Virus record (IMG/VR): IMGVR_UViG_2872703611_000005
Source: a virus
Lineage: Duplodnaviria > Heunggongvirae > Uroviricota > Caudoviricetes
Length of the DNA stretch: 44,989 nt
Reading direction: 5' to 3' (one strand)
The position numbers and the translations under genes were made by a program. A model generated the notes under the pieces. That model was not told where the DNA came from and ran no database searches. It saw only the letters and a program-made list of their open reading frames with translations. Positions 1,419 to 43,943 of this stretch are shown piece by piece. Every line of letters begins with the position of its first letter. Position 1 is the stretch's first letter.

Positions 1419-3890
1419 TTAAAAATCAGCCTGACTCGGGATCAGTTTTTGCCAGATTGCTGAAACGTATTTTGCCTGGTAACGGGCGTCATCAAGTGCA
1501 TTATGGCGCTCACCTTCGAATGGAATAGCCGTTCTGGCATCGAAGTCTATGGCTTTCCCCAGCTCAACGATTGTGCGTACATCGCGATCGTTGTAGTAAC
1601 GCCACGGGCAGGGGATCCCCTGCCGTTCGTATGAACGGCGCAAAATCGTGTTGTCGAAGTTGGCTCCATTTCCCCAGACCTGAACAAAAAATTCGCCGGA
1701 GTTTTCGTCGATAAATTCCCGCAATTGTAACAGTGCATCATCTAACGGGATTTCATCGGTCATAATAGCAGATTGCGCTTCGCGTGATTGCTTAAGCCAC
1801 CATTTAATAGTGTCCCGATCAATGACTCCGCCAGCAGTTTCCAGATCGATAGTCTTACTAAATTCCGGTCCCATATCTCCGGTTTGCGGATCGAAAAATA
1901 TTGCACCTATTGAGATGATCGGGGCATCGGGATTTTTTCCCATGGTTTCAAGGTCGATCATTAGATGGTCACACGTCCTGCTGGTGGATGTGATAACGCG
2001 ATGACCGTTCACCGTAATTAAGGGATCTGCCGTCTCGCCAGTTTCACTATCGCTGGCGTGATCCTGAGCGCTGCCAGCATTCTCCTTGTGTGGATGTTCA
2101 GCGCCTTCCATTTTCTCCGAATCGTCTTCCTGAACTTCAACCTGGTTCTTGTCATCGAATGTTTCCTGGTATGTTGCGTCGCCCATCACCGCGCCACAAT
2201 CAGGGCAGTTGCCGCCGCCGGTCTGGCCGCAGGCGGTGCAGATCTTTTCCGGTTCCTGTTGCACTACTGGTTCAGGTTGTTTCGTTTCTTGCTCGTTTTG
2301 TAACGCATTTGGGCTGTTTTGTTCCGCTTTCTGGCCGTTCTGTTCCGTTTCTTGCTGGTTCTGGTTCACAGAATCGCGGGTTTCCATCCCCTTAACCCAT
2401 TTCGGATCATTCGGGTCGCTAATCCCTTCAATAAATTCACCACGTGATGCAGCAAGCAACTTATCGGCGTCAGGCTGGCTGATATTGGCTGCCTGCATAA
2501 TTTTGTTTACTTCGTCAGCGGTAACTTTTACCGGTTCTGGCTGTGCGGTCGTGTCAGATGCACCAGTATTTTGTTGTGAACCTGAGTATGTACTGTTTTT
2601 GCGGGCGAAATATTCTTCTTTCGTGATTTCAGTAGCCCCGGCAGCCAGCGCCTTATCCAGACCAGAAAGTTTGTTTGCGCGACCGTATTTTTCGCCATCC
2701 TTGTCGGTGAAGAGGAAGTAGAACGGCCCCTCACGCTCTACAGATGGTTCGACTTCCACTTTGCATTCGGTTTTTTCGTTGTCCGGAATTGCCGTTTCCA
2801 CTGCATCAGTTTCTGGTACTGGCGACGAGAGAGTATCAGTTGCGATCTGATTTGTTCCTTCATCTTCAAACACGCCCTTTGTAGTCAGGTATTCAGTAAT
2901 GTATTTGTTCAGTACCACAGGGTCTTTGTGAATGTCGATCGGACGCTCACGGACAAGGCCAAAAATAGTCTGGCGGTCGTAGCGAAGGGCATCAGGCTGT
3001 TTGCGTATTGATGCTGAGATACGCTTCCAGTCTTCGCGGTCGTTGTTGATAACTTCATTTTTTGCCCAGCGATGGATGCTGCCGTCAATGTTTCCGGCAT
3101 CAATGTCACCAGGCCACAGAGCGTAGGCCAGTTCATCATCCAGTGTTTTCCATGTCTGCTTATATTCGCGACGAATGACTGCAGTGACAGGGGGGATATT
3201 TTCTGCTGAGTTTTCAGTGTGCTGTCGGTTGACTCTGGCGCGGGCGAGATCAACAGCAGACGTGTATTTTCCAGTCTCTTTGCGCTCTGCGTCCTGCCGT
3301 TTTTTCCAGTTACGTAATTCAGCCTGAATTTCGGGCCATTTGGCACCCGGATTACATTTGTGTTTAACCCATCCGATAGCGAACAGTTTGCGTTCCGGAT
3401 ACATAGCGTTAATTTCAGGCGTTTTCATCAGTGCTTCAACGATATGCCCGTCAAAGGTAGCAACGTCTTCCTGCAGTAATTCCTGCGCGTCAATCGCCAT
3501 ATCAACGGTGATGTTTTCACATGTACCGAACTTAACCAGGACCGCGTTCTGTACTTCAAGGGACAGCTTGTCAAAATTGACGTTCATCGGATCGGATTCT
3601 GGTTCGACCGGAATAAAGGAAGCGGATTCCTCATCCCAGCGGTTTTCCTGCATATATTCAGCATCCCAGGAATCGAGGGCAGGGCGGGGTATACCGGGTT
3701 TATCCTCGCAAACAAGAAATTTATAAGCGCAGTCCTGAGCAGCCGGATAATGTTCCAGGAATTGCCAGTGAAATTTTGCGCGGGCGCGACGTTCATCACC
3801 GGCTTCAATGGCAGTGGCTACAGCGACGGCACCTTCTTCCTTTATTGCCTGTTCGTCCGGAATAGCGGCGCAAATAAAGACTTTACTCAT
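1419..3890 (-). CDS. Large exonuclease-like protein with C-terminal DEDDh (DnaQ-like) 3'-5' exonuclease domain and CxxC-x-CxxC zinc ribbon
   Basis: 823 aa; C-terminus has D-L-E ... GNGANFD ... HNALDDA motifs typical of DEDDh exonucleases; CTACGQTGGGNCPDCG zinc-ribbon; sits in recombination-gene position next to xis. Confidence 0.7.
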   Translation of the reverse strand: MSKVFICAAIPDEQAIKEEGAVAVATAIEAGDERRARAKFHWQFLEHYPAAQDCAYKFLVCEDKPGIPRPALDSWDAEYMQENRWDEESASFIPVEPESDPMNVNFDKLSLEVQNAVLVKFGTCENITVDMAIDAQELLQEDVATFDGHIVEALMKTPEINAMYPERKLFAIGWVKHKCNPGAKWPEIQAELRNWKKRQDAERKETGKYTSAVDLARARVNRQHTENSAENIPPVTAVIRREYKQTWKTLDDELAYALWPGDIDAGNIDGSIHRWAKNEVINNDREDWKRISASIRKQPDALRYDRQTIFGLVRERPIDIHKDPVVLNKYITEYLTTKGVFEDEGTNQIATDTLSSPVPETDAVETAIPDNEKTECKVEVEPSVEREGPFYFLFTDKDGEKYGRANKLSGLDKALAAGATEITKEEYFARKNSTYSGSQQNTGASDTTAQPEPVKVTADEVNKIMQAANISQPDADKLLAASRGEFIEGISDPNDPKWVKGMETRDSVNQNQQETEQNGQKAEQNSPNALQNEQETKQPEPVVQQEPEKICTACGQTGGGNCPDCGAVMGDATYQETFDDKNQVEVQEDDSEKMEGAEHPHKENAGSAQDHASDSETGETADPLITVNGHRVITSTSRTCDHLMIDLETMGKNPDAPIISIGAIFFDPQTGDMGPEFSKTIDLETAGGVIDRDTIKWWLKQSREAQSAIMTDEIPLDDALLQLREFIDENSGEFFVQVWGNGANFDNTILRRSYERQGIPCPWRYYNDRDVRTIVELGKAIDFDARTAIPFEGERHNALDDARYQAKYVSAIWQKLIPSQADF

Positions 3891-3969: not shown

Positions 3970-4173
3970 TTACGGCGCTGTTTTAAGTCCTGCCGGGATT
4001 TCGTTATTATCCATGTGAATAACTTTATCGACCGGATAGCAGTTACCGGGGATTTTTTGTTCTGCTGCGGCAGCCATGCATTCTTTCATTGAACCGTAAA
4101 TGTCAATAACCATGTCAACAGGCTCGCCAGTATTAAGAAAAACAGTCAGAGTGAGGGCAATAGCAGTATTCAT
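3970..4173 (-). CDS. Small hydrophobic protein downstream of dicB (YdfD-like position)
   Basis: 67 aa from internal Met (MNTAIALTLTVF...), hydrophobic N-terminus; stop of dicB overlaps its start. Confidence 0.45.
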   Translation of the reverse strand: MNTAIALTLTVFLNTGEPVDMVIDIYGSMKECMAAAAEQKIPGNCYPVDKVIHMDNNEIPAGLKTAP

Positions 4174-4358
4174 TGCCAGTATCCTTTTTGCATCGGGCGT
4201 AAACGTGCCAGCATTGAAAGAATGCATATTTTATTTAATAGCTCCCGTTCGTATTTTCTCTTATTAATGGCATCTTCAGTAAATACTGGGTTACTGATAG
4301 TGACACCAATTTCAAAACAACCTTCAGACGTATTGACGTTTGGTAATAACGTTTCCAT
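4170..4358 (-). CDS. dicB: Cell division inhibitor DicB (MinC-activating Kil-type protein)
   Basis: 62 aa METLLPNVNTSEGCFEIGVTISNPVFTEDAINKRK..., matches my recollection of Qin DicB nearly residue-for-residue. Confidence 0.85.
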   Translation of the reverse strand: METLLPNVNTSEGCFEIGVTISNPVFTEDAINKRKYERELLNKICILSMLARLRPMQKGYWQ

Positions 4359-6773: not shown

Positions 6774-7001
6774 ATGTTTAAATCAGACGTAATTAATTTT
6801 TATGGGACGAAAGCCAAAGTAGCGAAAGCTGCTGGTGTTGATCCATCTGCTGTTTCTCAATGGGGGGAACTGGTTCCTGAAGGTCGCGCGATGCGCCTGC
6901 AAGAGGCATCCGACGGGGAACTTCAGTACGACCCCAAAGTTTATGACGAATATCGTAAGGCAAAGCGGGCGGGGCGGTTGAACAATGAAAATCACCCCTG
7001 A
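6774..7001 (+). CDS. dicC: Cro-like regulator, DicC/YdaS family
   Basis: 75 aa from ATG with GGAGGG RBS; ...LVPEGRAMRLQEASDGELQYDPKVYDEYRKAKRAGRLNNENHP matches DicC-type proteins; divergent from repressor. Confidence 0.75.
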   Translation: MFKSDVINFYGTKAKVAKAAGVDPSAVSQWGELVPEGRAMRLQEASDGELQYDPKVYDEYRKAKRAGRLNNENHP

Positions 7002-7506
7002 ACAGGTTTGTGAGGCTCTGGATGCCTGGGTATGTCGACCAGGAATGACACAGGAGCAGGCGACGATATTAATCACGGAAGCATTCTGGGCTCTGAAAGA
7101 ACGCCCGAACATCGATGTTCAACGCGTCACGTTTAATGATGGCGAGGTTGATCAACGGGCGCTGGGCGTTAACCGGGTGAAGATATTCGAACGCTGGAAA
7201 GCTATCGACACCAGGGATAAGCGGAAAAAATTCACGGCGCTGATTCCGGCAATTATGGAGGCTATCCGGATTAATGATTTCAGGTTGTATCGTGAAATTA
7301 CTGACGGAAAAAGCATTACGTACATGATCGCCGGGTTAAATAAAGAATATGGCGATGTGGTGGAATCCGGACTGCTTTTTGCAGATCCAGCTGTAGTGGA
7401 TCGTGAAACTGACGAACTTATAGAAAAAGCAATTGCTTTCAAGCTTGCGTATCGACAGCAATACCAACAAAAAGCTGGATGGAATTATGAGTCTTCTTTT
7501 TGCTGA
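6985..7506 (+). CDS. Hypothetical protein in YdaT/CII position
   Basis: 173 aa ORF overlapping the dicC stop, upstream of replication genes; family assignment by position only. Confidence 0.5.
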   Translation: MKITPEQVCEALDAWVCRPGMTQEQATILITEAFWALKERPNIDVQRVTFNDGEVDQRALGVNRVKIFERWKAIDTRDKRKKFTALIPAIMEAIRINDFRLYREITDGKSITYMIAGLNKEYGDVVESGLLFADPAVVDRETDELIEKAIAFKLAYRQQYQQKAGWNYESSFC

Positions 7507-11339: not shown

Positions 11340-11533
11340 ATCTTAGTTAAGTAGAATGACTGTGGGTGCTTGAGGCTATCTGTCTCAGGCATGAACACCA
11401 AAAGGCAGATAGAGAAAAGCCCCAGTTAACATTACGCGTCCTGCAAGACGCTTAACATTAATCTGAGGCTCAATCCATGCTGAACACATGTAGGTTAGCC
11501 TCTTACGTGCCGAAAGGCAAGGAGAAGCAGGCT
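11340..11533. promoter_or_regulatory. hok leader region, expected to carry the mok-like upstream frame and antisense Sok RNA
   Basis: Long leader upstream of hok with an in-frame upstream ATG at 11477; architecture typical of hok/sok loci; sok boundaries not determined. Confidence 0.4.
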
Positions 11534-11689
11534 ATGAAGCAGCAAAAGGCGATGTTAATCGCCCTTATCGTCATCTGTTTAACCGTCATAGTGACGGCAC
11601 TGGTAACGAGGAAAGACCTCTGCGAGGTACGAATCCGAACCGGCCAGACGGAGGTCGCTGTCTTCACAGCTTACGAACCTGAGGAGTAA
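11534..11689 (+). CDS. hok: Hok/Gef family type I toxin
   Basis: 51 aa MKQQKAMLIALIVICLTVIVTALVTRKDLCEVRIRTGQTEVAVFTAYEPEE, matches my recollection of E. coli HokD/RelF. Confidence 0.9.
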   Translation: MKQQKAMLIALIVICLTVIVTALVTRKDLCEVRIRTGQTEVAVFTAYEPEE

Positions 11690-11758
11690 GAGACCCAGCG
11701 GGGGAGAAATCCCTCGCCGCCTCTGATGTGTCAGGCATCCTCAACGCACCCGCACTTA

Positions 11759-11780
11759 ACCCGCTTCGGCGGGTTTTTCG
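11759..11780 (+). terminator. Intrinsic terminator after hok
   Basis: CCCGCTTCGGCGGG stem-loop followed by TTTTT. Confidence 0.7.
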
Positions 11781-11904
11781 TCGCATTATGAGGTTGTAAT
11801 TTTAGCTACCATGAGACTATCCTAAGGATCTCAAACAGATCTATTTTGTATCAAATTTGGTGCATGGCTTTGCCAATAATCGGAAAACAAAAGGACTCAT
11901 TAGT

Positions 11905-12084
11905 ATGAGCTGCCCACTCAAAAAACACACGCGGTTGAGTATTCCGCCTCGCGATAAAAGCGTTGTGGCAGTCCCTCGCCCAGTGATTGATGAAAACTGC
12001 GCACATCGTGAACAAGTGAAAAATGCTTTTGATTTCGGTTTTTCTCGTTATGAGAAAGCCATGGAAGAACTTTCAAAAGTGTAA
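11905..12084 (+). CDS. Small protein upstream of Doc-like toxin (candidate antitoxin)
   Basis: 59 aa from ATG at 11905; stop 18 nt before the Doc-like start; no Phd/YefM similarity recognised. Confidence 0.4.
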   Translation: MSCPLKKHTRLSIPPRDKSVVAVPRPVIDENCAHREQVKNAFDFGFSRYEKAMEELSKV

Positions 12085-12102
12085 TGATGGGTATTGTACT
12101 CT

Positions 12103-12588
12103 ATGGCTGAGATTGTTGAAGGAGTGCATTACCTTACGGTTGATGATCTTGTTGAAATCAATCATTCCCTAATTGAATTACAGACGCCAGATGAGCCCGT
12201 TGGTGTTCTGAGTCCAGATAACTTAAGTTCTTCTCAGGCCCGTCCCAGCATGGTTCGATGGTATGAACAGACTAATGACATGTTTGTACTGGCATCGGTA
12301 TTGATTGAAAGTCTGATTCAGAATCATCCGTTTGCTAATGCGAACAAACGAACAGCTATGATGGCTGGTTACGTCTTCTTGTTGTTGAATGGCTATGAGT
12401 TAACAGCACCAGGCGATGAAATCGTGGAAATGGCAGAGGGACTGGCCTGCAAAACCTATACTCGAGAAGATCTCGAGAACTGGTTGTGTTATTGGTCTCG
12501 CGCGTATGACAGCCGGGAATTATGTAAAACAAGCGCAACTATTGTTTTGTATGAAACTATCAAGCTTAAAATAGAACAGCAAAACTAA
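12103..12588 (+). CDS. Doc/Fic family toxin (death-on-curing-like kinase domain)
   Basis: Motif HPFANANKRTA matches the Doc signature HxFx(D/N)(A/G)NKR (P1 Doc HIFNDANKRTA, recalled); start may be TTG at 12094. Confidence 0.75.
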   Translation: MAEIVEGVHYLTVDDLVEINHSLIELQTPDEPVGVLSPDNLSSSQARPSMVRWYEQTNDMFVLASVLIESLIQNHPFANANKRTAMMAGYVFLLLNGYELTAPGDEIVEMAEGLACKTYTREDLENWLCYWSRAYDSRELCKTSATIVLYETIKLKIEQQN

Positions 12589-12602
12589 AGGTGCTTCCAA
12601 TG

Positions 12603-12628
12603 AAAACCCGCTTCGGCGGGTTTTTTAT
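12603..12628 (+). terminator. Intrinsic terminator after Doc-like gene
   Basis: AAAACCCGCTTCGGCGGGTTTTTTATT; same hairpin as the hok terminator. Confidence 0.75.
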
Positions 12629-12679: not shown

Positions 12680-12707
12680 TTGATTAGCTGGTATGCCTGA
12701 CTAGAAT
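12680..12707 (+). promoter_or_regulatory. Putative sigma70 promoter for the 87-aa ORF
   Basis: TTGATT - 16 nt - TAGAAT, located between a terminator and the ORF at 12786. Confidence 0.5.
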
Positions 12708-12785: not shown

Positions 12786-13049
12786 TTGATGAAAATCAGA
12801 GAATTACGTGAAATTTTTAGTGAAGATGGCCTCTATACTGTGCGCGTTGAGAATGGCGCAATTGTCAGCCACTGCCGTATTAAATGTTTACAGTCTCAAC
12901 AAAGGAAGAGTGGAGCTGCGTTAATTCATTTGGTGGATGGGCTTGTGACGGATGGTTTTATTTTGCGTGCAAATGAATTTGTCACATCGTTGCCGTCTCT
13001 GAAAGAAGCTGGGATTAAGGCTGGTTTTTCTGCTTTTGAAGATGAGTGA
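12786..13049 (+). CDS. Hypothetical 87-aa protein
   Basis: ORF with its own upstream promoter-like sequence and a preceding terminator; no family recognised. Confidence 0.45.
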   Translation: MMKIRELREIFSEDGLYTVRVENGAIVSHCRIKCLQSQQRKSGAALIHLVDGLVTDGFILRANEFVTSLPSLKEAGIKAGFSAFEDE

Positions 13050-17082: not shown

Positions 17083-17131
17083 AACGGATGAGATTGCAGA
17101 ATTAATTACGCACCATTATTATTCTGCTCCC

Positions 17132-17207
17132 GGCCCTTTAGCTCAGTGGTGAGAGCGAGCGACTCATAATCGCCAGGTCGCTGGTTCAAATCCAGCAAGG
17201 GCCACCA
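17132..17207 (+). tRNA. tRNA with CAU anticodon (Ile2/Met type)
   Basis: Hand-folded cloverleaf; GGCCCTT/AAGGGCC acceptor, anticodon loop CTCATAA, GGTTCAAATCC T-arm, 3' CCA encoded. Confidence 0.8.
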
Positions 17208-17214
17208 TCACATA

Positions 17215-17291
17215 CCGCCATTAGCTCATCAGGATAGAGCGCCAGCCTTCGAAGCTGGTTGCGCGGGGTTCGAGTCCTCGATGGCGGTCCA
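17215..17291 (+). tRNA. tRNA-Arg (anticodon UCG)
   Basis: Hand-folded cloverleaf; anticodon loop CTTCGAA, T-arm GGTTCGAGTCC, 3' CCA; exact 5' end approximate. Confidence 0.7.
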
Positions 17292-17304
17292 TTATCTGTA
17301 CCCT

Positions 17305-17381
17305 GCGTTGTTAGCTCAGCCGGACAGAGCAATTGCCTTCTAAGCAATCGGTCACTGGTTCGAATCCAGTACAACGCGCCA
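17305..17381 (+). tRNA. tRNA-Arg (anticodon UCU)
   Basis: Hand-folded cloverleaf; GCGTTGT/ACAACGC acceptor, anticodon loop CTTCTAA, T-arm GGTTCGAATCC, 3' CCA. Confidence 0.8.
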
Positions 17382-20253: not shown

Positions 20254-20835
20254 CAGGCATTACAGCAGCCCTTCACTCTAAGGGGTTGCTGTAATGTGAG
20301 AAATAAAAAACCGGTCACAGGGAGCAGCTACACAGAAGCGGCCGGCGAAGACCGCCAATACCACCCATGCATTGATGCAACATACTAATGACAATAGCCG
20401 CTATTGATGTAAATGCAATGTTATGCATCGACGAAAATAAAAAACCGGCAGGGGAAATCCATTGAAGATTTGCCGGTGGCAAAAGAGGGCCATGTTTTTA
20501 ACCTTAGTCGCAGAGTTACGGAGTGCAACTACGAATGCTGCCGGTATATGGCTGAATGGCGTTTCAATGATGTACGTCATCTTATCTGTAAATGTTAATG
20601 ACAAACGCTCTCATTTGTGCGGGTCCTTCCGGTGGGGTGGCCTGCCACGGGGCGGGAGCGTCGCGGAAAAAGGCTAGTTTTTAAAATTTTATTCGTCATC
20701 ACCACCACTGTAATAGATTGATATTACAGTGGTTTTATTTTTATGGTGTCGATTTTGATTGTTTTTTGTTCATCACTAACACCGTTTGCCTAAAGTTGTT
20801 CGCGAGATGCATGTTTAAAACATTCTGGAGCGGGT

Positions 20836-21330
20836 ATGGATCGAGAGTTAAAAAATCTGACGCTGAATATCAGTCAACTGGCGGCACTGTCAGGTGTACA
20901 TCGCCAGACTGCTGCGGCAAGGCTGCAAAATCTACCCGTTGCAGGGGGGCATGAAAGCAACCTCAAGCTTTATCGGGTGGTTGATATTGTGTCGGCATTT
21001 CTGGCATTGCCACCGCCGGTTGCAGAAGGCGAAATGGACGCGCATGAGCGCAAAGCCTGGTATCAGTCTGAACGTGAGCGTCTTAAGTTCGAACAGGAAA
21101 CGGCACAACTCATTTCGGCCAGTGATGTCAGACGGGAGTTTGCCATCTGGGCAAAAGCGGTCGTGCAGGTGCTGGAGACATTACCGGATATTCTGGAACG
21201 TGACTGCGGTCTGCAGCCTGCCGCTGTGAGCCGTGTTCAGTCCATTATTGATGATCTGCGCGATCAGATAGCCCTGCGGGTGACTGAAGCAGGTGCGGAT
21301 GATGAGGAGGAATTACAGCAGGAGGAGTAA
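20836..21330 (+). CDS. Terminase small subunit (Nu1-like)
   Basis: 164 aa with N-terminal HTH-like LTLNISQLAALSGVHRQTAAARL and acidic C-terminus; immediately upstream of the large subunit. Confidence 0.75.
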   Translation: MDRELKNLTLNISQLAALSGVHRQTAAARLQNLPVAGGHESNLKLYRVVDIVSAFLALPPPVAEGEMDAHERKAWYQSERERLKFEQETAQLISASDVRREFAIWAKAVVQVLETLPDILERDCGLQPAAVSRVQSIIDDLRDQIALRVTEAGADDEEELQQEE

Positions 21331-23432
21331 TGCTGAATCAGGAAACCGCAAAGGCAGCACGAACCGATTCAGGTTATATCCTTCGCGCACCGAGACGAAT
21401 GCGGGTTGCTGATGCCGTTGCTCAGTATATGCGGGTGCCCATGGGGGCAGGTAACTCAGTCCCGTGGGATCCGCTGGTGGCACCGTATGTTATTGAGCCG
21501 ATGAACTGCCTGGCCTCGCGTGAATACGACGCAGTGATATTTGTTGGCCCGGCACGAACCGGCAAGACTATCGGCCTGATTGACGGCTGGGTGATTTACA
21601 ACGTGATTTGCGATCCTGCTGATATGCTGATCATTCAGATGACGGAGGAAAAAGCCCGCGAACACTCCAAAAAACGACTCGCCAGAACGTTTCGCGTCAG
21701 CCCGGAAGTGGTCAGTCGCCTGAGTCCGAACAAAAATGACAACAACGTTTATGACAGAACATTCCTTGCTGGTAACTACCTGAAAATCGGCTGGCCGTCA
21801 GTCAATATCATGTCCTCATCAGATTATAAATGCGTCGCGCTGACGGATTATGACCGTTTTCCGGAAGATATTGATGGCGAGGGGGATGCTTTCTCTCTTG
21901 CCTCAAAACGTACCACCACATTTATGTCCAGCGGTATGACGTTGGTGGAGAGTTCCCCCGGCAGGGATGTGAAGGATGTGAAATGGCGACGGACTTCACC
22001 GCATGAGGCTCCACCAACCACGGGGATCCTGTCGCTCTATAACCGTGGTGATCGCCGTCGCTGGTACTGGCCCTGTCCACACTGTGGTGAGTATTTTCAG
22101 CCCTGCGGCGATGTGGTTGCTGGTTTCCGTGATATTGCCGATCCCGTGCTGGCAAGTGAGGCGGCTTATATTCAGTGTCCTTCCTGTTCAGGACGGATTA
22201 TGCCTGAACAAAAACGTGAGCTGAACGGACGTGGGGTCTGGTTGCGGGATGGTGAATCCATCAATGCGGATGGCAGTCGTTATGGTGATCCCCGACGCTC
22301 ACGTATTGCGTCATTCTGGATGGAGGGTCCGGCAGCTGCTTACCAGACACTCTCGCAACTCGTTTACAAACTGCTTACTGCAGAACAGGAATACGAGACA
22401 ACCGGAAGTGAAGAAACACTCAGGGCGGTTATCAATACCGACTGGGGATTACCTTATCTTCCCCGCGCCAGCATGGAGCAACGAAAAAGTGAACTGCTTG
22501 AGCAGCGGGCAGAGCCAGTTCTTTCCCGCAGTGTGCCGGATGGCGTTAATTTCCTTGTGGCGACAGTGGATGTGCAGGCGGGACGTCATCGCCGTTTTGT
22601 GGTTCAGGTAACGGGCTATGGCAGCCGTGGCGAACGCTGGATTATTGATCGTTACAACATCACGCAGTCATTGCGCGGTGACAGCGACGGGGAGAGCCAG
22701 CGAATTGATCCGGCCAGCTATCCGGAAGACTGGGATGTCCTGCTGACGGATGTTTTTCATAAAAGCTGGCCGCTGGCCTCCAATCCTTCTCAACAAATGC
22801 GACTGATGGCAATGGCGGTGGACTCCGGCGGTGAAGACGGGGTCACTGATAATGCCTATAAATTCTGGCGTCGTTGCCGTCGTGATGGCCTTGGTAAACG
22901 TATTTACCTGTTTAAGGGCGACAGCATCCGGCGCGCAAAACTGATCACCCGTACATTCCCTGATAACACCGGACGAACGGGCCGACGGGCGCAGGCCGCA
23001 GGTGATGTGCCGCTCTGGCTTCTTCAGACGGATGCACTGAAAGACCGGGTGAATAACGCGTTATGGCGTGACTCGCCAGGTCCAGGCTATGTGCATTTCC
23101 CTGACTGGCTGGGGAGCTGGTTTTACGACGAACTGACGTATGAAGAGCGGAGCAGTGACGGGAAATGGAGTAAGCCGGGTCGCGGTGCCAACGAAGCTTT
23201 TGACCTGATGGTGTATGCCGAGGCTCTGGTCATTCTGCATGGATACGAAAAGATCCGCTGGCCGGATGCACCGGAGTGGGCGAGCCGGGAAACCTGGCTG
23301 GAGTGTGTCCAGGACAGTACTGAACCGTCATCCTCACCGGAACCGGTATCCACGCCTGTTAAAAAACAAAAACGGAAGAAAACAGTAACTGACGATGTTA
23401 ACCCCTGGCTGACTTCCGGAGGATGGTTATGA
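21330..23432 (+). CDS. Terminase large subunit (lambda A-like)
   Basis: 700 aa; Walker A-like VGPARTGKT; position and size as lambda gpA. Confidence 0.85.
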   Translation: MLNQETAKAARTDSGYILRAPRRMRVADAVAQYMRVPMGAGNSVPWDPLVAPYVIEPMNCLASREYDAVIFVGPARTGKTIGLIDGWVIYNVICDPADMLIIQMTEEKAREHSKKRLARTFRVSPEVVSRLSPNKNDNNVYDRTFLAGNYLKIGWPSVNIMSSSDYKCVALTDYDRFPEDIDGEGDAFSLASKRTTTFMSSGMTLVESSPGRDVKDVKWRRTSPHEAPPTTGILSLYNRGDRRRWYWPCPHCGEYFQPCGDVVAGFRDIADPVLASEAAYIQCPSCSGRIMPEQKRELNGRGVWLRDGESINADGSRYGDPRRSRIASFWMEGPAAAYQTLSQLVYKLLTAEQEYETTGSEETLRAVINTDWGLPYLPRASMEQRKSELLEQRAEPVLSRSVPDGVNFLVATVDVQAGRHRRFVVQVTGYGSRGERWIIDRYNITQSLRGDSDGESQRIDPASYPEDWDVLLTDVFHKSWPLASNPSQQMRLMAMAVDSGGEDGVTDNAYKFWRRCRRDGLGKRIYLFKGDSIRRAKLITRTFPDNTGRTGRRAQAAGDVPLWLLQTDALKDRVNNALWRDSPGPGYVHFPDWLGSWFYDELTYEERSSDGKWSKPGRGANEAFDLMVYAEALVILHGYEKIRWPDAPEWASRETWLECVQDSTEPSSSPEPVSTPVKKQKRKKTVTDDVNPWLTSGGWL

Positions 23433-23641
23433 ACCAGAATGATATCGAAGCCATGATTCAGCGTTATACGGAAGCTGAAATGGCGGTGCTGGACGGAAAA
23501 TCCGTCACTTTTAATGGTCAGCAGATGACCATGGAAAACTTATCTGAGATCCGGCAGGGACGGCAGGAGTGGGAGCGCCGCCTTGCGGCTCTGATTACAC
23601 GACGACGGGGGCATCCCGGGTACCGGCTGGCGAGGTTCTGA
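23423..23641 (+). CDS. Head-tail joining protein W-like
   Basis: 72 aa between terminase and portal; C-terminus ...RRRGHPGYRLARF resembles lambda gpW. Confidence 0.7.
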   Translation: MVMNQNDIEAMIQRYTEAEMAVLDGKSVTFNGQQMTMENLSEIRQGRQEWERRLAALITRRRGHPGYRLARF

Positions 23642-25149
23642 TGGCAATTCTTGATGATGTGATTGGCGTTTTTTCACCAGGATGGAAAGCGGCAAGGCTG
23701 CGTTCCCGGGCGGTGATCCAGGCTTATGAGGCCGTAAAAACGACACGGACACACAAAGCCCGGCGGGAAAACCGAACTGCCGACCAGTTAAGCCAGTACG
23801 GGGCCGTGTCGTTACGTGAGCAGGCCCGTTACCTTGATAACAACCACGATCTGGTTATTGGTGTATTTGACAAGCTGGAAGAACGGGTTGTGGGGAAAAA
23901 CGGGATTATTGTCGAGCCACATCCGGTATTACGCAATGGGGCCATTGCCCGTGATCTGGCAGCGGAGATACGCACCCGATGGAGTGAATGGTCTGTCAGT
24001 CCGGAAGTCACCGGGCAGTTTACCCGTCCGATGCTGGAACGTCTGATGCTGCGTACCTGGCTGCGCGATGGTGAGGTGTTTGCCCAGATGGTTTCCGGGC
24101 GCATAAACAGCCTGACGCCTTCTGCCGGTGTTCATTTCTGGCTGGAGGCGCTCGAGCCGGACTTTATTCCCATGACCAGTGATGAGAGCAACAGGCTGAA
24201 TCAGGGCGTGTTTGTTGATGACTGGGGGCGTCCCGAAAAATATCTGGTGTATAAAAGCCGTCCCGTATCCGGGCGGCAGATGGAAACCAAAGAAGTGGAT
24301 GCAGAGCGAATGCTGCATCTTAAATTTGTTCGCCGTCTGCACCAGATGCGCGGGACGTCTTTGTTGTCCGGTGTGCTGATCCGCCTCAGTGCCCTGAAAG
24401 AGTATGAAGATTCTGAGCTGACTGCAGCAAGGATCGCCGCTGCTCTGGGGATGTACATCCGGAAAGGCGACGGGCAGAGCTATGAACCGGATGGTAATGG
24501 CAGCAAGGAGAATGAACGCGAGCTTACCATTCAGCCAGGCATTATTTACGACGATCTGAAACCCGGCGAAGAAATCGGAATGGTGAAGTCGGATCGTCCC
24601 AATCCTAACCTTGAAACTTTTCGTAATGGTCAGTTGCGTGCCGTGGCGGCGGGCAGTCGTCTGAGTTTTTCCAGCACGGCACGCAACTATAACGGCACTT
24701 ACAGCGCCCAGCGTCAGGAGCTGGTTGAATCCACTGATGGCTACCTGATCCTGCAGGACTGGTTTATTGGTGCCGTCACCCGCCCGATGTATCGTGCCTG
24801 GCTGAAACAGGCTGTGGCATCCGGTGTTATCAGGCTACCCCGCGATCTTGATCGTTCTTCACTGTATACCGCGGTGTATTCCGGACCGGTGATGCCGTGG
24901 ATTGACCCTGTTAAGGAGGCTGAGGCCTGGAAAATTCAGATTCGTGGTGGAGCGGCGACAGAATCAGACTGGGTACGTGCAGGTGGTCGTAATCCGGATG
25001 ATGTCAAACGTCGGCGCAAGGCCGAAATTGATGAAAACCGCAAGCTGGATCTGGTATTTGATACCGATCCGGCCAGTGATAAAGGAGGCAGCAGTGCCGC
25101 AACGAAACGACAGGAGCCGCAGCACACCGACGACCAGTCCGAAGAATAA
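23641..25149 (+). CDS. Portal protein (lambda B-like)
   Basis: 502 aa from ATG overlapping the W stop (TGATG); position and size as lambda gpB. Confidence 0.8.
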   Translation: MAILDDVIGVFSPGWKAARLRSRAVIQAYEAVKTTRTHKARRENRTADQLSQYGAVSLREQARYLDNNHDLVIGVFDKLEERVVGKNGIIVEPHPVLRNGAIARDLAAEIRTRWSEWSVSPEVTGQFTRPMLERLMLRTWLRDGEVFAQMVSGRINSLTPSAGVHFWLEALEPDFIPMTSDESNRLNQGVFVDDWGRPEKYLVYKSRPVSGRQMETKEVDAERMLHLKFVRRLHQMRGTSLLSGVLIRLSALKEYEDSELTAARIAAALGMYIRKGDGQSYEPDGNGSKENERELTIQPGIIYDDLKPGEEIGMVKSDRPNPNLETFRNGQLRAVAAGSRLSFSSTARNYNGTYSAQRQELVESTDGYLILQDWFIGAVTRPMYRAWLKQAVASGVIRLPRDLDRSSLYTAVYSGPVMPWIDPVKEAEAWKIQIRGGAATESDWVRAGGRNPDDVKRRRKAEIDENRKLDLVFDTDPASDKGGSSAATKRQEPQHTDDQSEE

Positions 25150-25162
25150 TTCCTGGTTCAGG

Positions 25163-43359: not shown

Positions 43360-43943
43360 TGGCATTCAGAATGAGTGAACAAGCACGGACCATAAAAATT
43401 TATAATCTGCTGGCCGGAACTAATGAATTTATTGGTGAAGGTGACGCATATATTCCGCCTCATACAGGTCTGCCAGCAAACAGTACCGATATTGCACCAC
43501 CAGATATTCCTGCTGGCTTTGTGGCTGTTTTCAACAGTGATGAGGCATCGTGGCATCTCGTTGAAGACCATCGGGGTAAAACGGTTTATGACGTAGCGTC
43601 AGGGGACGAGTTATTTATTTCTGAACTCGGTCCGTTACCGGAAAATGTTACCTGGTTATCGCCGGAAGGGGAGTTTCAGAAGTGGAACGGCACAGCCTGG
43701 GTGAAGGATACGGAAGCAGAAAAACTGTTCCGGATCCGGGAGGCGGAAGAAACAAAAAACAACCTGATGCAGGTAGCCAGTGAGCATATTGCGCCGCTTC
43801 AGGATGCTGCAGATCTGGAAATTGCAACGGAGGAAGAAACCTCATTGCTGGAAGCCTGGAAAAAGTATCGGGTGTTGCTGAACCGTGTTGATACATCAAC
43901 TGCACCTGATATTGAGTGGCCTACGAACCCTGTCAGGGAGTAA
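43359..43943 (+). CDS. tfa: Tail fibre assembly protein Tfa
   Basis: 194 aa starting at ATG overlapping the stf stop (TAATG); lambda Tfa-like. Confidence 0.85.
43786..43943 (+). repeat. Direct repeat copy 1 (tfa 3' segment), paired with 44835-44989
   Basis: About 155 nt of close similarity between the 3' end of tfa and the 3' end of the downstream tfa fragment, flanking the methyltransferase gene. Confidence 0.7.

Follow-up and report, generated by a model that had tools for sequence, protein, structure and literature searches.

What is the small gene that precedes a Doc/Fic-family toxin gene in a lambdoid prophage of Escherichia coli, and do the two genes form a toxin-antitoxin pair? The question is raised by a stretch of viral DNA of 44,989 nucleotides (nt) from the IMG/VR record IMGVR_UViG_2872703611_000005, referred to in whole as the window, in which a candidate antitoxin gene for 59 amino acids (aa) (WP_001277775; 11905 to 12084, from ATG to TAA) is followed by a gene encoding a 161-aa Doc-family toxin (WP_000818165; 12103 to 12588, with an ATG start). 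Positions are those of the window, and the features of the cassette lie on its plus strand. Comparison of the sequences indicates that the two genes probably constitute a type II Doc toxin-antitoxin system with a minimal antitoxin. The toxin was already known, the partner family was previously uncurated, and current understanding of such systems is not challenged by the result.

The 161-aa protein matched the Doc-specific model TIGR01550 (DOC_P1) with 127.9 bits (cut-off 38.65, E = 2.2e-37), the alignment spanning protein residues 11-130 and positions 2-122 of the 122 in the model. It also matched the Pfam Fic family PF02661 (1.2e-11, 45.7 bits, cut-off 24) and PHROG 577, 'Doc-like toxin' (2e-51), and its closest solved relatives were the Doc of Enterococcus faecalis (PDB 9VZC, 6.7e-13) and then the Doc of P1 (5.5e-5). 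The canonical Fic AMPylation motif is HxFx(D/E)GNGRxxR, and the Doc signature is HxFx(D/N)(A/G)NKR (Castro-Roa 2013, as cited in PMC10440598). The catalytic motif H75-P-F-A-N-A-N-K-R83 (12325 to 12351) fits the Doc signature, and the extended motif H-P-F-A-N-A-N-K-R-T-A-M differs from the canonical Fic motif in having A for G at position 6, K for G at position 8 and M for R at position 12. H75, F77, N79, N81, K82 and R83 were invariant across 29 aligned homologues, and these six motif residues were kept in all 16 intact Doc open reading frames (ORFs) among the 18 loci that were read, the window included. A preliminary description made from the letters of the sequence had pointed to HPFANANKRTA in this protein, which is indeed present at residues 75-85 (12325 to 12357), and had predicted a Doc rather than a canonical Fic protein, a prediction borne out by the three profile matches and the motif. 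By family, the 161-aa protein is a Doc-type toxin, and genome pipelines already name it so.

The 59-aa partner is labelled 'hypothetical protein' in RefSeq and 'bacteriophage protein' elsewhere. It matched PHROG 2208 ('unknown function') end to end (1.7e-40), and no match at E <= 1 was obtained with the models of Pfam, NCBIfam or PADLOC. In 14 equal-length orthologues the identity at the three codon positions was 0.73 / 0.85 / 0.50, a pattern which argues that the small ORF is a translated gene, and dN/dS was 0.16. Judged by these values, it is a real gene under purifying selection. The preliminary description had correctly given the ORF 59 aa and a gap of 18 nt between its stop codon and the Doc ATG, but had begun the locus at 11857, where a TTG opens a longer frame of 75 aa. 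The real start was placed at 11905, since the equivalent Met in the family, the point at which homology between alleles breaks off and the RefSeq call all agree: every family member starts at the Met equivalent to 11905, and the homology between E. coli alleles, which are 87-96 % identical, begins only at this ATG.

The small protein and Doc were found together wherever either was used as the query. All 17 genomic loci found via the small protein contained a Doc homologue 3-19 nt downstream; they represent 14 genera, namely Kluyvera, Serratia, Citrobacter, Proteus, Hafnia, Rosenbergiella, Yersinia (Yersinia pestis), Morganella, Providencia, Izhakiella, Xenorhabdus, an Orbaceae bacterium, Stutzerimonas and Ignatzschineria. 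Starting from Doc, a member of the small-protein family was present 6-18 nt upstream on the same strand in 80 out of 80 IMG/VR viral loci, many of which are near-identical E. coli prophage copies and 32 of which are at <=78 % identity. The same arrangement of small protein and Doc occurs in Pseudomonas phage Sirocco. The small gene therefore lies directly 5′ of the toxin gene on the same strand and is kept with it as a pair, as is characteristic of a type II operon. Two of the 17 genomic loci had a disrupted Doc and an intact small ORF: in Proteus penneri (L007) Doc is frameshifted (3191-3662), and in Providencia sp. (L012) similarity to Doc sets in only at residue 16, with no intact Doc ORF detected. 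As far as can be read from the loci, decay of either partner happens in nature.

A profile search of 1.84 billion representative proteins gathered 38 clusters (50 % identity) of the small protein, nearly all of 47-69 aa, with the common pattern RLxIPxRDK, then P.P, then H..QV.NAF..gF.RYEKAmEELSKV. When the PDB was searched with the family profile, the sole match was ribosomal protein S25 (E = 0.22), which is attributed to chance. Five members (P0028, P0029, P0035, P0045 and P0050) carry N-terminal extensions of 15-70 residues before IPxRDK, in which no Pfam family was matched; these extensions may be mis-called starts or real added domains. Another sequence, P0025, resembles a frameshifted copy of the Yersinia small protein.

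A way in which the small protein could neutralise Doc is suggested by its C-terminal part. AlphaFold2, supplied with an alignment of 34 sequences, predicted a single helix at residues 34-57, with a predicted local distance difference test (pLDDT) score of 93-94 for residues 41-59 and 84 for residues 31-40. The amphipathic C-terminal segment HREQVKNAFDFGFSRYEKAMEELSKV (residues 34-59; 12004 to 12081) is proposed as the Doc-neutralising, Phd-C-like element. All 34 family members share A41 and L56, and 32 of them have Y49; F42, F46, Y49, M53 and L56 form the conserved hydrophobic stripe of the predicted helix.

The helix was compared with that of EFPhd, the antitoxin of the E. faecalis EFPhd-EFDoc pair, for which the sequence was taken from an Enterococcus phage record and a small family alignment was built for hhalign. 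The last 24 columns of the two families aligned in register, with the partner helix opposite EFPhd residues 53-76 and the conserved H34 facing EFPhd H54, and both aligned stretches stopped three residues short of the C-terminus. The score was 21.1 (P = 9e-4), a value reached in none of 200 column shuffles (mean 8.9, standard deviation 2.1, maximum 16), and the reversed control gave 9.3; with the C-terminal halves alone P was 2.8e-4. EFPhd's C-terminal helix, spanning residues 52-79, is the part seen bound to Doc (PMC13034048). In Salmonella Phd the hot spots were measured at F56, M60, H63, L67 and L70 of 73 residues (PMC9207808). Residues 42, 46, 49, 53 and 56 of the 59-aa partner would correspond to them with a constant offset of 14 and at the same distance to the C-terminus. 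A 22-residue C-terminal peptide of Phd is sufficient to bind and inhibit Doc (PMC9207808), and Phd-C has been described as a neutralising element exchangeable between antitoxin scaffolds, with antitoxins that consist of the neutralising domain only also existing (PMC10440598). The specific mechanism, in which residues 34-59 of the partner would dock as a helix in the groove of Doc, is somewhat favoured by these alignments and is held less firmly than the assignment of the pair as a toxin-antitoxin system.

The cassette also has candidate signals for its own expression. A putative sigma-70 promoter (11794 to 11823) consists of a −35 hexamer TTGTAA (11794-11799), an 18-nt spacer and a −10 hexamer TATCCT (11818-11823), which together match the consensus at 8 of 12 positions. 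Diverged E. coli alleles keep TTGTGA and TATGCT at the same aligned position although the spacer and the 5′ untranslated region differ, and a promoter-like site was present 77-120 nt 5′ of the ATG in each of 19 loci. These observations support a weak putative promoter belonging to the cassette itself. An AGGA Shine-Dalgarno sequence (11892-11895) stands 9 nt ahead of the 59-aa ORF, and the one before doc is poor; given the 3-19 nt gap and this poor Shine-Dalgarno sequence, coupled translation of the small gene and doc is suggested. Inverted repeats near the promoter scored better than shuffles (P <= 0.05) in 6 of the 19 loci, some of them mutually related, and no DNA-binding domain was recognisable by profile in the 59-aa protein.

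The cassette lies directly downstream of the hok/sok genes, represented by sok RNA (11364-11539; Rfam RF01794, 118.9 bits) and hokD (11534-11689; Pfam HOK_GEF, 3e-23), and it is bordered by two exact direct copies of a 21-nt terminator spaced 847 nt apart. Each copy, AACCCGCTTCGGCGGGTTTTT, is a GC hairpin whose loop is UUCG, followed by a T-run; the left one (11758 to 11778) is the hok terminator and the right one (12605 to 12625) is the cassette's own. The chance of a 21-nt exact repeat within 1.7 kb was estimated at ~1e-6. At the equivalent site phage PPompW carries hok, a single terminator and rem, and the cassette is absent; PPompW is collinear with the window to 11778 and resumes at ~12700. 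The cassette is therefore considered an insertion. Compared with PPompW, the window has an extra 847 bp that comprise genes, a terminator and kept −35/−10 hexamers, as expected of a phage moron, and on this comparison the 847-bp unit is an inserted moron in a lambdoid prophage. The view taken at the outset, of a self-contained unit enclosed by two copies of one terminator and adjoining hok/sok, is thus confirmed by the exact repeat, by PPompW and by the Rfam match of sok.

In Citrobacter and Xenorhabdus loci the stop codon of doc is likewise followed by the hairpin CCCGCTTCGGCGGG and a T-run, and in Morganella and Serratia by similar hairpins. Since hairpins of this type stand behind doc in distant genera, the terminator moves with the cassette, and the two copies in the window are explained as that of hok and that accompanying Doc. 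The identity of the cassette terminator to the hok terminator may aid recombination at this site. The positions of CCCGCTTCGGCGGG plus T-run, or of a close variant, after the Doc stop are 3686 in locus L006, 3690 in L016 and L017, 2308 in L011 and 3753 in L005. An Rfam scan found no RNA family within the cassette. Downstream of the cassette an 86-aa rem-like ORF (12789-13049) matched PHROG 340 (unknown function, 3.9e-23).

What the analysis shows is that the small gene is real, to which families the two proteins belong, that their pairing is strict, where the cassette is bounded and that the C-terminal helix is similar to that of EFPhd. Toxicity, neutralisation, the EF-Tu target, the promoter and the biological role of the cassette are inferred, the EF-Tu step from membership in the Doc family. 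P1 and Salmonella Doc are EF-Tu kinases (PMC9207808), and EFDoc has EF-Tu-dependent kinase activity (PMC13034048). By analogy with P1 Doc and E. faecalis Doc, free 161-aa Doc would most likely phosphorylate EF-Tu (at Thr382) and arrest translation. The 59-aa protein would act as the antitoxin, with its predicted helix 34-59 sitting in the Doc groove like the C-terminal helix of Phd, and the ~33-residue segment with IPxRDK would stand where other Doc antitoxins carry a DNA-binding domain of the Phd/YefM or AbrB type. Both genes would be co-transcribed from the weak promoter of the cassette, and the transcript would end at its own terminator. The cassette is likely to serve the selfish stabilisation of its prophage, protection from other phages, or both purposes.

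Several observations weigh against this reading. The AlphaFold model of Doc had a mean pLDDT of 67.3, which is low confidence and is due to a shallow alignment of close relatives only; the top Foldseek matches of its confident core were P1 Doc structures (probability 1.00, root-mean-square deviation 1.9 Å over 76 columns, E ~3e-3), and VbhT-VbhA and FicT-FicA/YhfG were weaker fold matches. The hhalign probability for the similarity of the helix to EFPhd was 23-41 % at an identity of 13 %, and the segment is short, with many lysines and glutamates. The hhalign comparison with P1 Phd gave a probability of 1.1 %, and no similarity was detected. The promoter is a weak match to the consensus and was missed by a stricter standard scan, in which the sole promoter-like site was 12680-12707, just 5′ of the 86-aa rem-like ORF. 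The inverted repeat near the promoter in the window was no better than chance (P = 0.78), and autoregulation is for that reason unsupported in this window. Finally, the nearly invariant IPxRDK has no place in a simple model in which the partner is a helix only.

The lack of similarity to P1 Phd agrees with the impression, recorded in the preliminary description, that the partner is unlike Phd/YefM, as do the absence of Pfam and NCBIfam matches and the search with PF02604 (Phd/YefM), which matched none of the 34 family members. The further suggestion of an antitoxin of a different type applies to the N-terminal half and does not apply to the C-terminal helix, which resembles Phd-C of the AbrB-type EFPhd.

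Among named systems EFPhd-EFDoc (9VZC) is the nearest to the cassette, with the antitoxin gene likewise first, the closest solved relative of the toxin, and the last 26 residues of both antitoxins, from the conserved His to the C-terminus, aligned in register. It differs in that EFPhd has 79 aa and an AbrB-like beta-dome DNA-binding domain in residues 1-55, whereas the partner has 59 aa, of which the N-terminal 33 have no predicted secondary structure and bear IPxRDK. Phd-Doc of P1 and Salmonella (3K33, 3DD7) has the same toxin family and catalytic motif, is likewise found on prophages, and relies on a C-terminal helix for neutralisation; the spacing of its hot spots (4, 3, 4, 3, and three residues to the C-terminus) is as in the partner. 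These Phd proteins, however, have an N-terminal DNA-binding domain of the YefM type (PF02604), not detected in the partner, and P1 Doc is more distant (E = 5.5e-5) and has 126 aa in comparison to 161 aa here. The PanA-Phd-C : Doc pairs of the NetFlax study (PMC10440598) follow a like principle, that of a short linear Phd-C element attachable to partners or nearly standalone. In those pairs a globular Panacea domain carries the element as a fusion, and in the partner it comes after a short conserved segment predicted to be unstructured; no Pfam match to Panacea (DUF4065) was found in the 59-aa family. VbhT-VbhA and FicT-FicA/YhfG also combine a Fic-fold toxin with an antitoxin of ~55-60 aa devoid of a DNA-binding domain, but there the antitoxins carry an alpha-inh helix with (S/T)xxxE(G/N) and the toxins are AMP transferases. 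On direct reading the (S/T)xxxE(G/N) Fic-inhibitory motif is absent from the 59-aa sequence.

Of the alternatives considered, the one that survives best is compatible with a toxin-antitoxin mechanism and concerns its purpose: the main role of the cassette could be phage defence or superinfection exclusion, an infecting phage freeing Doc, for example by causing the labile small protein to be lost or sequestered, so that translation would stop before the phage cycle is completed. In favour of such a role, the cassette is a moron in the accessory-gene region right after hok/sok, the copy in O104:H4 is in addition beside a RelE/ParE and helix-turn-helix (HTH) pair, this Doc clade is present on 168 viral contigs, the cassette has stayed intact although the prophage is defective, and toxin-antitoxin pairs are increasingly shown to be anti-phage (PMC10440598). 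PADLOC, however, gave only weak, partial matches for Doc, to PDC-S23 and PDC-S05 (best E = 0.002) and confined to the region of the Fic motif, and none for the small protein; literature searches found no paper on this cassette. Defence as the main role is thus a possible explanation, but a tentative one.

The N-terminal segment of the partner has a conserved motif, RLxIPPRDK (residues 10-18; 11932 to 11958), defined in the 34-member alignment, in which I13 is kept in 33 members, P14 in 32, R16 in 33 and D17 in 27. AlphaFold2 gave no secondary structure for residues 1-33, a proline-rich segment of ~33 residues. The IPxRDK segment could provide a second contact with Doc, a degradation signal or a contact with DNA. 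A more far-reaching proposal, that IPxRDK is a new functional module and not a spacer or degron, for instance a sensor or decoy engaged by a phage or host factor and releasing Doc, or a new, very short DNA-binding or Doc-dimerising element replacing the AbrB/YefM domain, is regarded as rather doubtful. If the motif were such a sensor or decoy, the cassette would be a prophage-borne abortive-infection switch. The IPxRDK motif is the one element of the cassette that could prove new. A ribbon-helix-helix fold (strand RLSIPP, helix, G-x-S, helix) was also considered for the small protein and dropped because a proline-rich stretch of ~18 residues lies between strand and helix, AlphaFold2 predicted one continuous helix, and no Pfam family of this fold was matched.

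It is unlikely that a Doc-like enzyme which is non-toxic by itself, for example one modifying a phage or host protein during lytic growth, is regulated, chaperoned or given its specificity by the small protein. Such a function would be in keeping with a family in which profile searches recognised no DNA-binding or other known antitoxin domain, and with the conserved IPxRDK motif, otherwise left without explanation; the small ORF also persists beside the disrupted Doc of L007 and L012, a pattern expected if Doc is costly, though one that also shows the small gene able to persist alone. Classical Doc toxin-antitoxin pairs nevertheless have this same gene order, spacing, strict co-occurrence and catalytic motif, and within the small protein conservation is highest in the helix, which can be aligned with a solved helix that neutralises Doc.

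Still less probable is an origin of the small protein by decay of an AbrB-type or Phd/YefM-type antitoxin, which would make it a degenerate member of a known family. The likeness of its C-terminal helix to that of the AbrB-type EFPhd speaks for this origin, and by eye 'RLSIPPRD' recalls the AbrB strand 'vtiPke'. A decayed AbrB domain at the N-terminus was rejected, however, since the N-terminal halves of the partner and EFPhd scored 4.8 in hhalign, below the shuffled mean of 7.2. None of the 34 members matched PF04014 (AbrB), as none had matched PF02604; among the controls a Staphylococcus phage antitoxin matched PF04014 (1.8e-7) and EFPhd did so weakly, below the Pfam cut-off (0.0026). In addition, the N-terminal region is ~20 residues short of a swapped-hairpin domain, and it has a near-invariant motif of its own under purifying selection in Enterobacterales, Orbaceae, Pseudomonadales and Ignatzschineria.

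That the large protein is a Fic-type AMP transferase and not a kinase is very improbable, because its Fic fold and PF02661 match are outweighed by an active-site motif that departs from the Fic consensus at three positions and fits the Doc signature, by the 128 bits of the Doc-specific TIGR01550 and by a small protein without (S/T)xxxE(G/N).

The reading of the pair as a Doc toxin and its minimal antitoxin bears on genome annotation. Pipelines report this Doc as an orphan toxin because its partner is unnamed in RefSeq and the PHROGs and has no Pfam or NCBIfam model, and naming the partner family would correct orphan-Doc annotations in E. coli and many other Gammaproteobacteria. The partner would also be a natural example of a near-minimal Doc antitoxin, useful for the idea of exchangeable antitoxin elements and for peptide inhibitors of Doc.

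Among complete E. coli genomes, ~2 % (124-128 out of 5,426) have this Doc annotated as an orphan, including O104:H4, O121:H19, avian pathogenic E. coli (APEC) O1 and enterotoxigenic E. coli (ETEC) strains, and the cassette sequence is 100 % identical in several human ETEC isolates. In the E. coli prophages examined (ETEC, O104:H4, APEC O1 and O121:H19) the cassette was always located directly 3′ of hok/sok (11364-11689 in the window, 2136-3864 in L025, and also in L026 and L027). In O104:H4 the RelE/ParE toxin and HTH gene pair comes after the cassette on the opposite strand. The site after hok/sok, within the nin region of lambdoid prophages, appears to be a hotspot that gathers toxin-antitoxin modules.

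The window as a whole is a lambdoid E. coli prophage extending from integrase to tail fibre. At 20733-25539 an ISCro1 element of the IS66 family (tnpA, tnpB and transposase, ~21587-24202) splits the gene of the terminase large subunit into two pseudogene halves, and because of this disruption the prophage is defective and probably unable to package DNA. A YdaT-family 'toxin' beside a Cro/CI-type regulator (6985-7506) and the cell-division inhibitor DicB (4170-4358) are encoded in the same prophage, giving it several accessory genes that inhibit growth. A cluster of three tRNA genes (Ile, Arg, Arg; 17128-17377) has a DNA methyltransferase gene on one side and the holin/lysis genes on the other, an arrangement shared with Stx-type lambdoid phages, and a full-length Rfam IS009 match (RF02111, 225 bits) was found at 43702-43900, inside the tail-fibre gene region.

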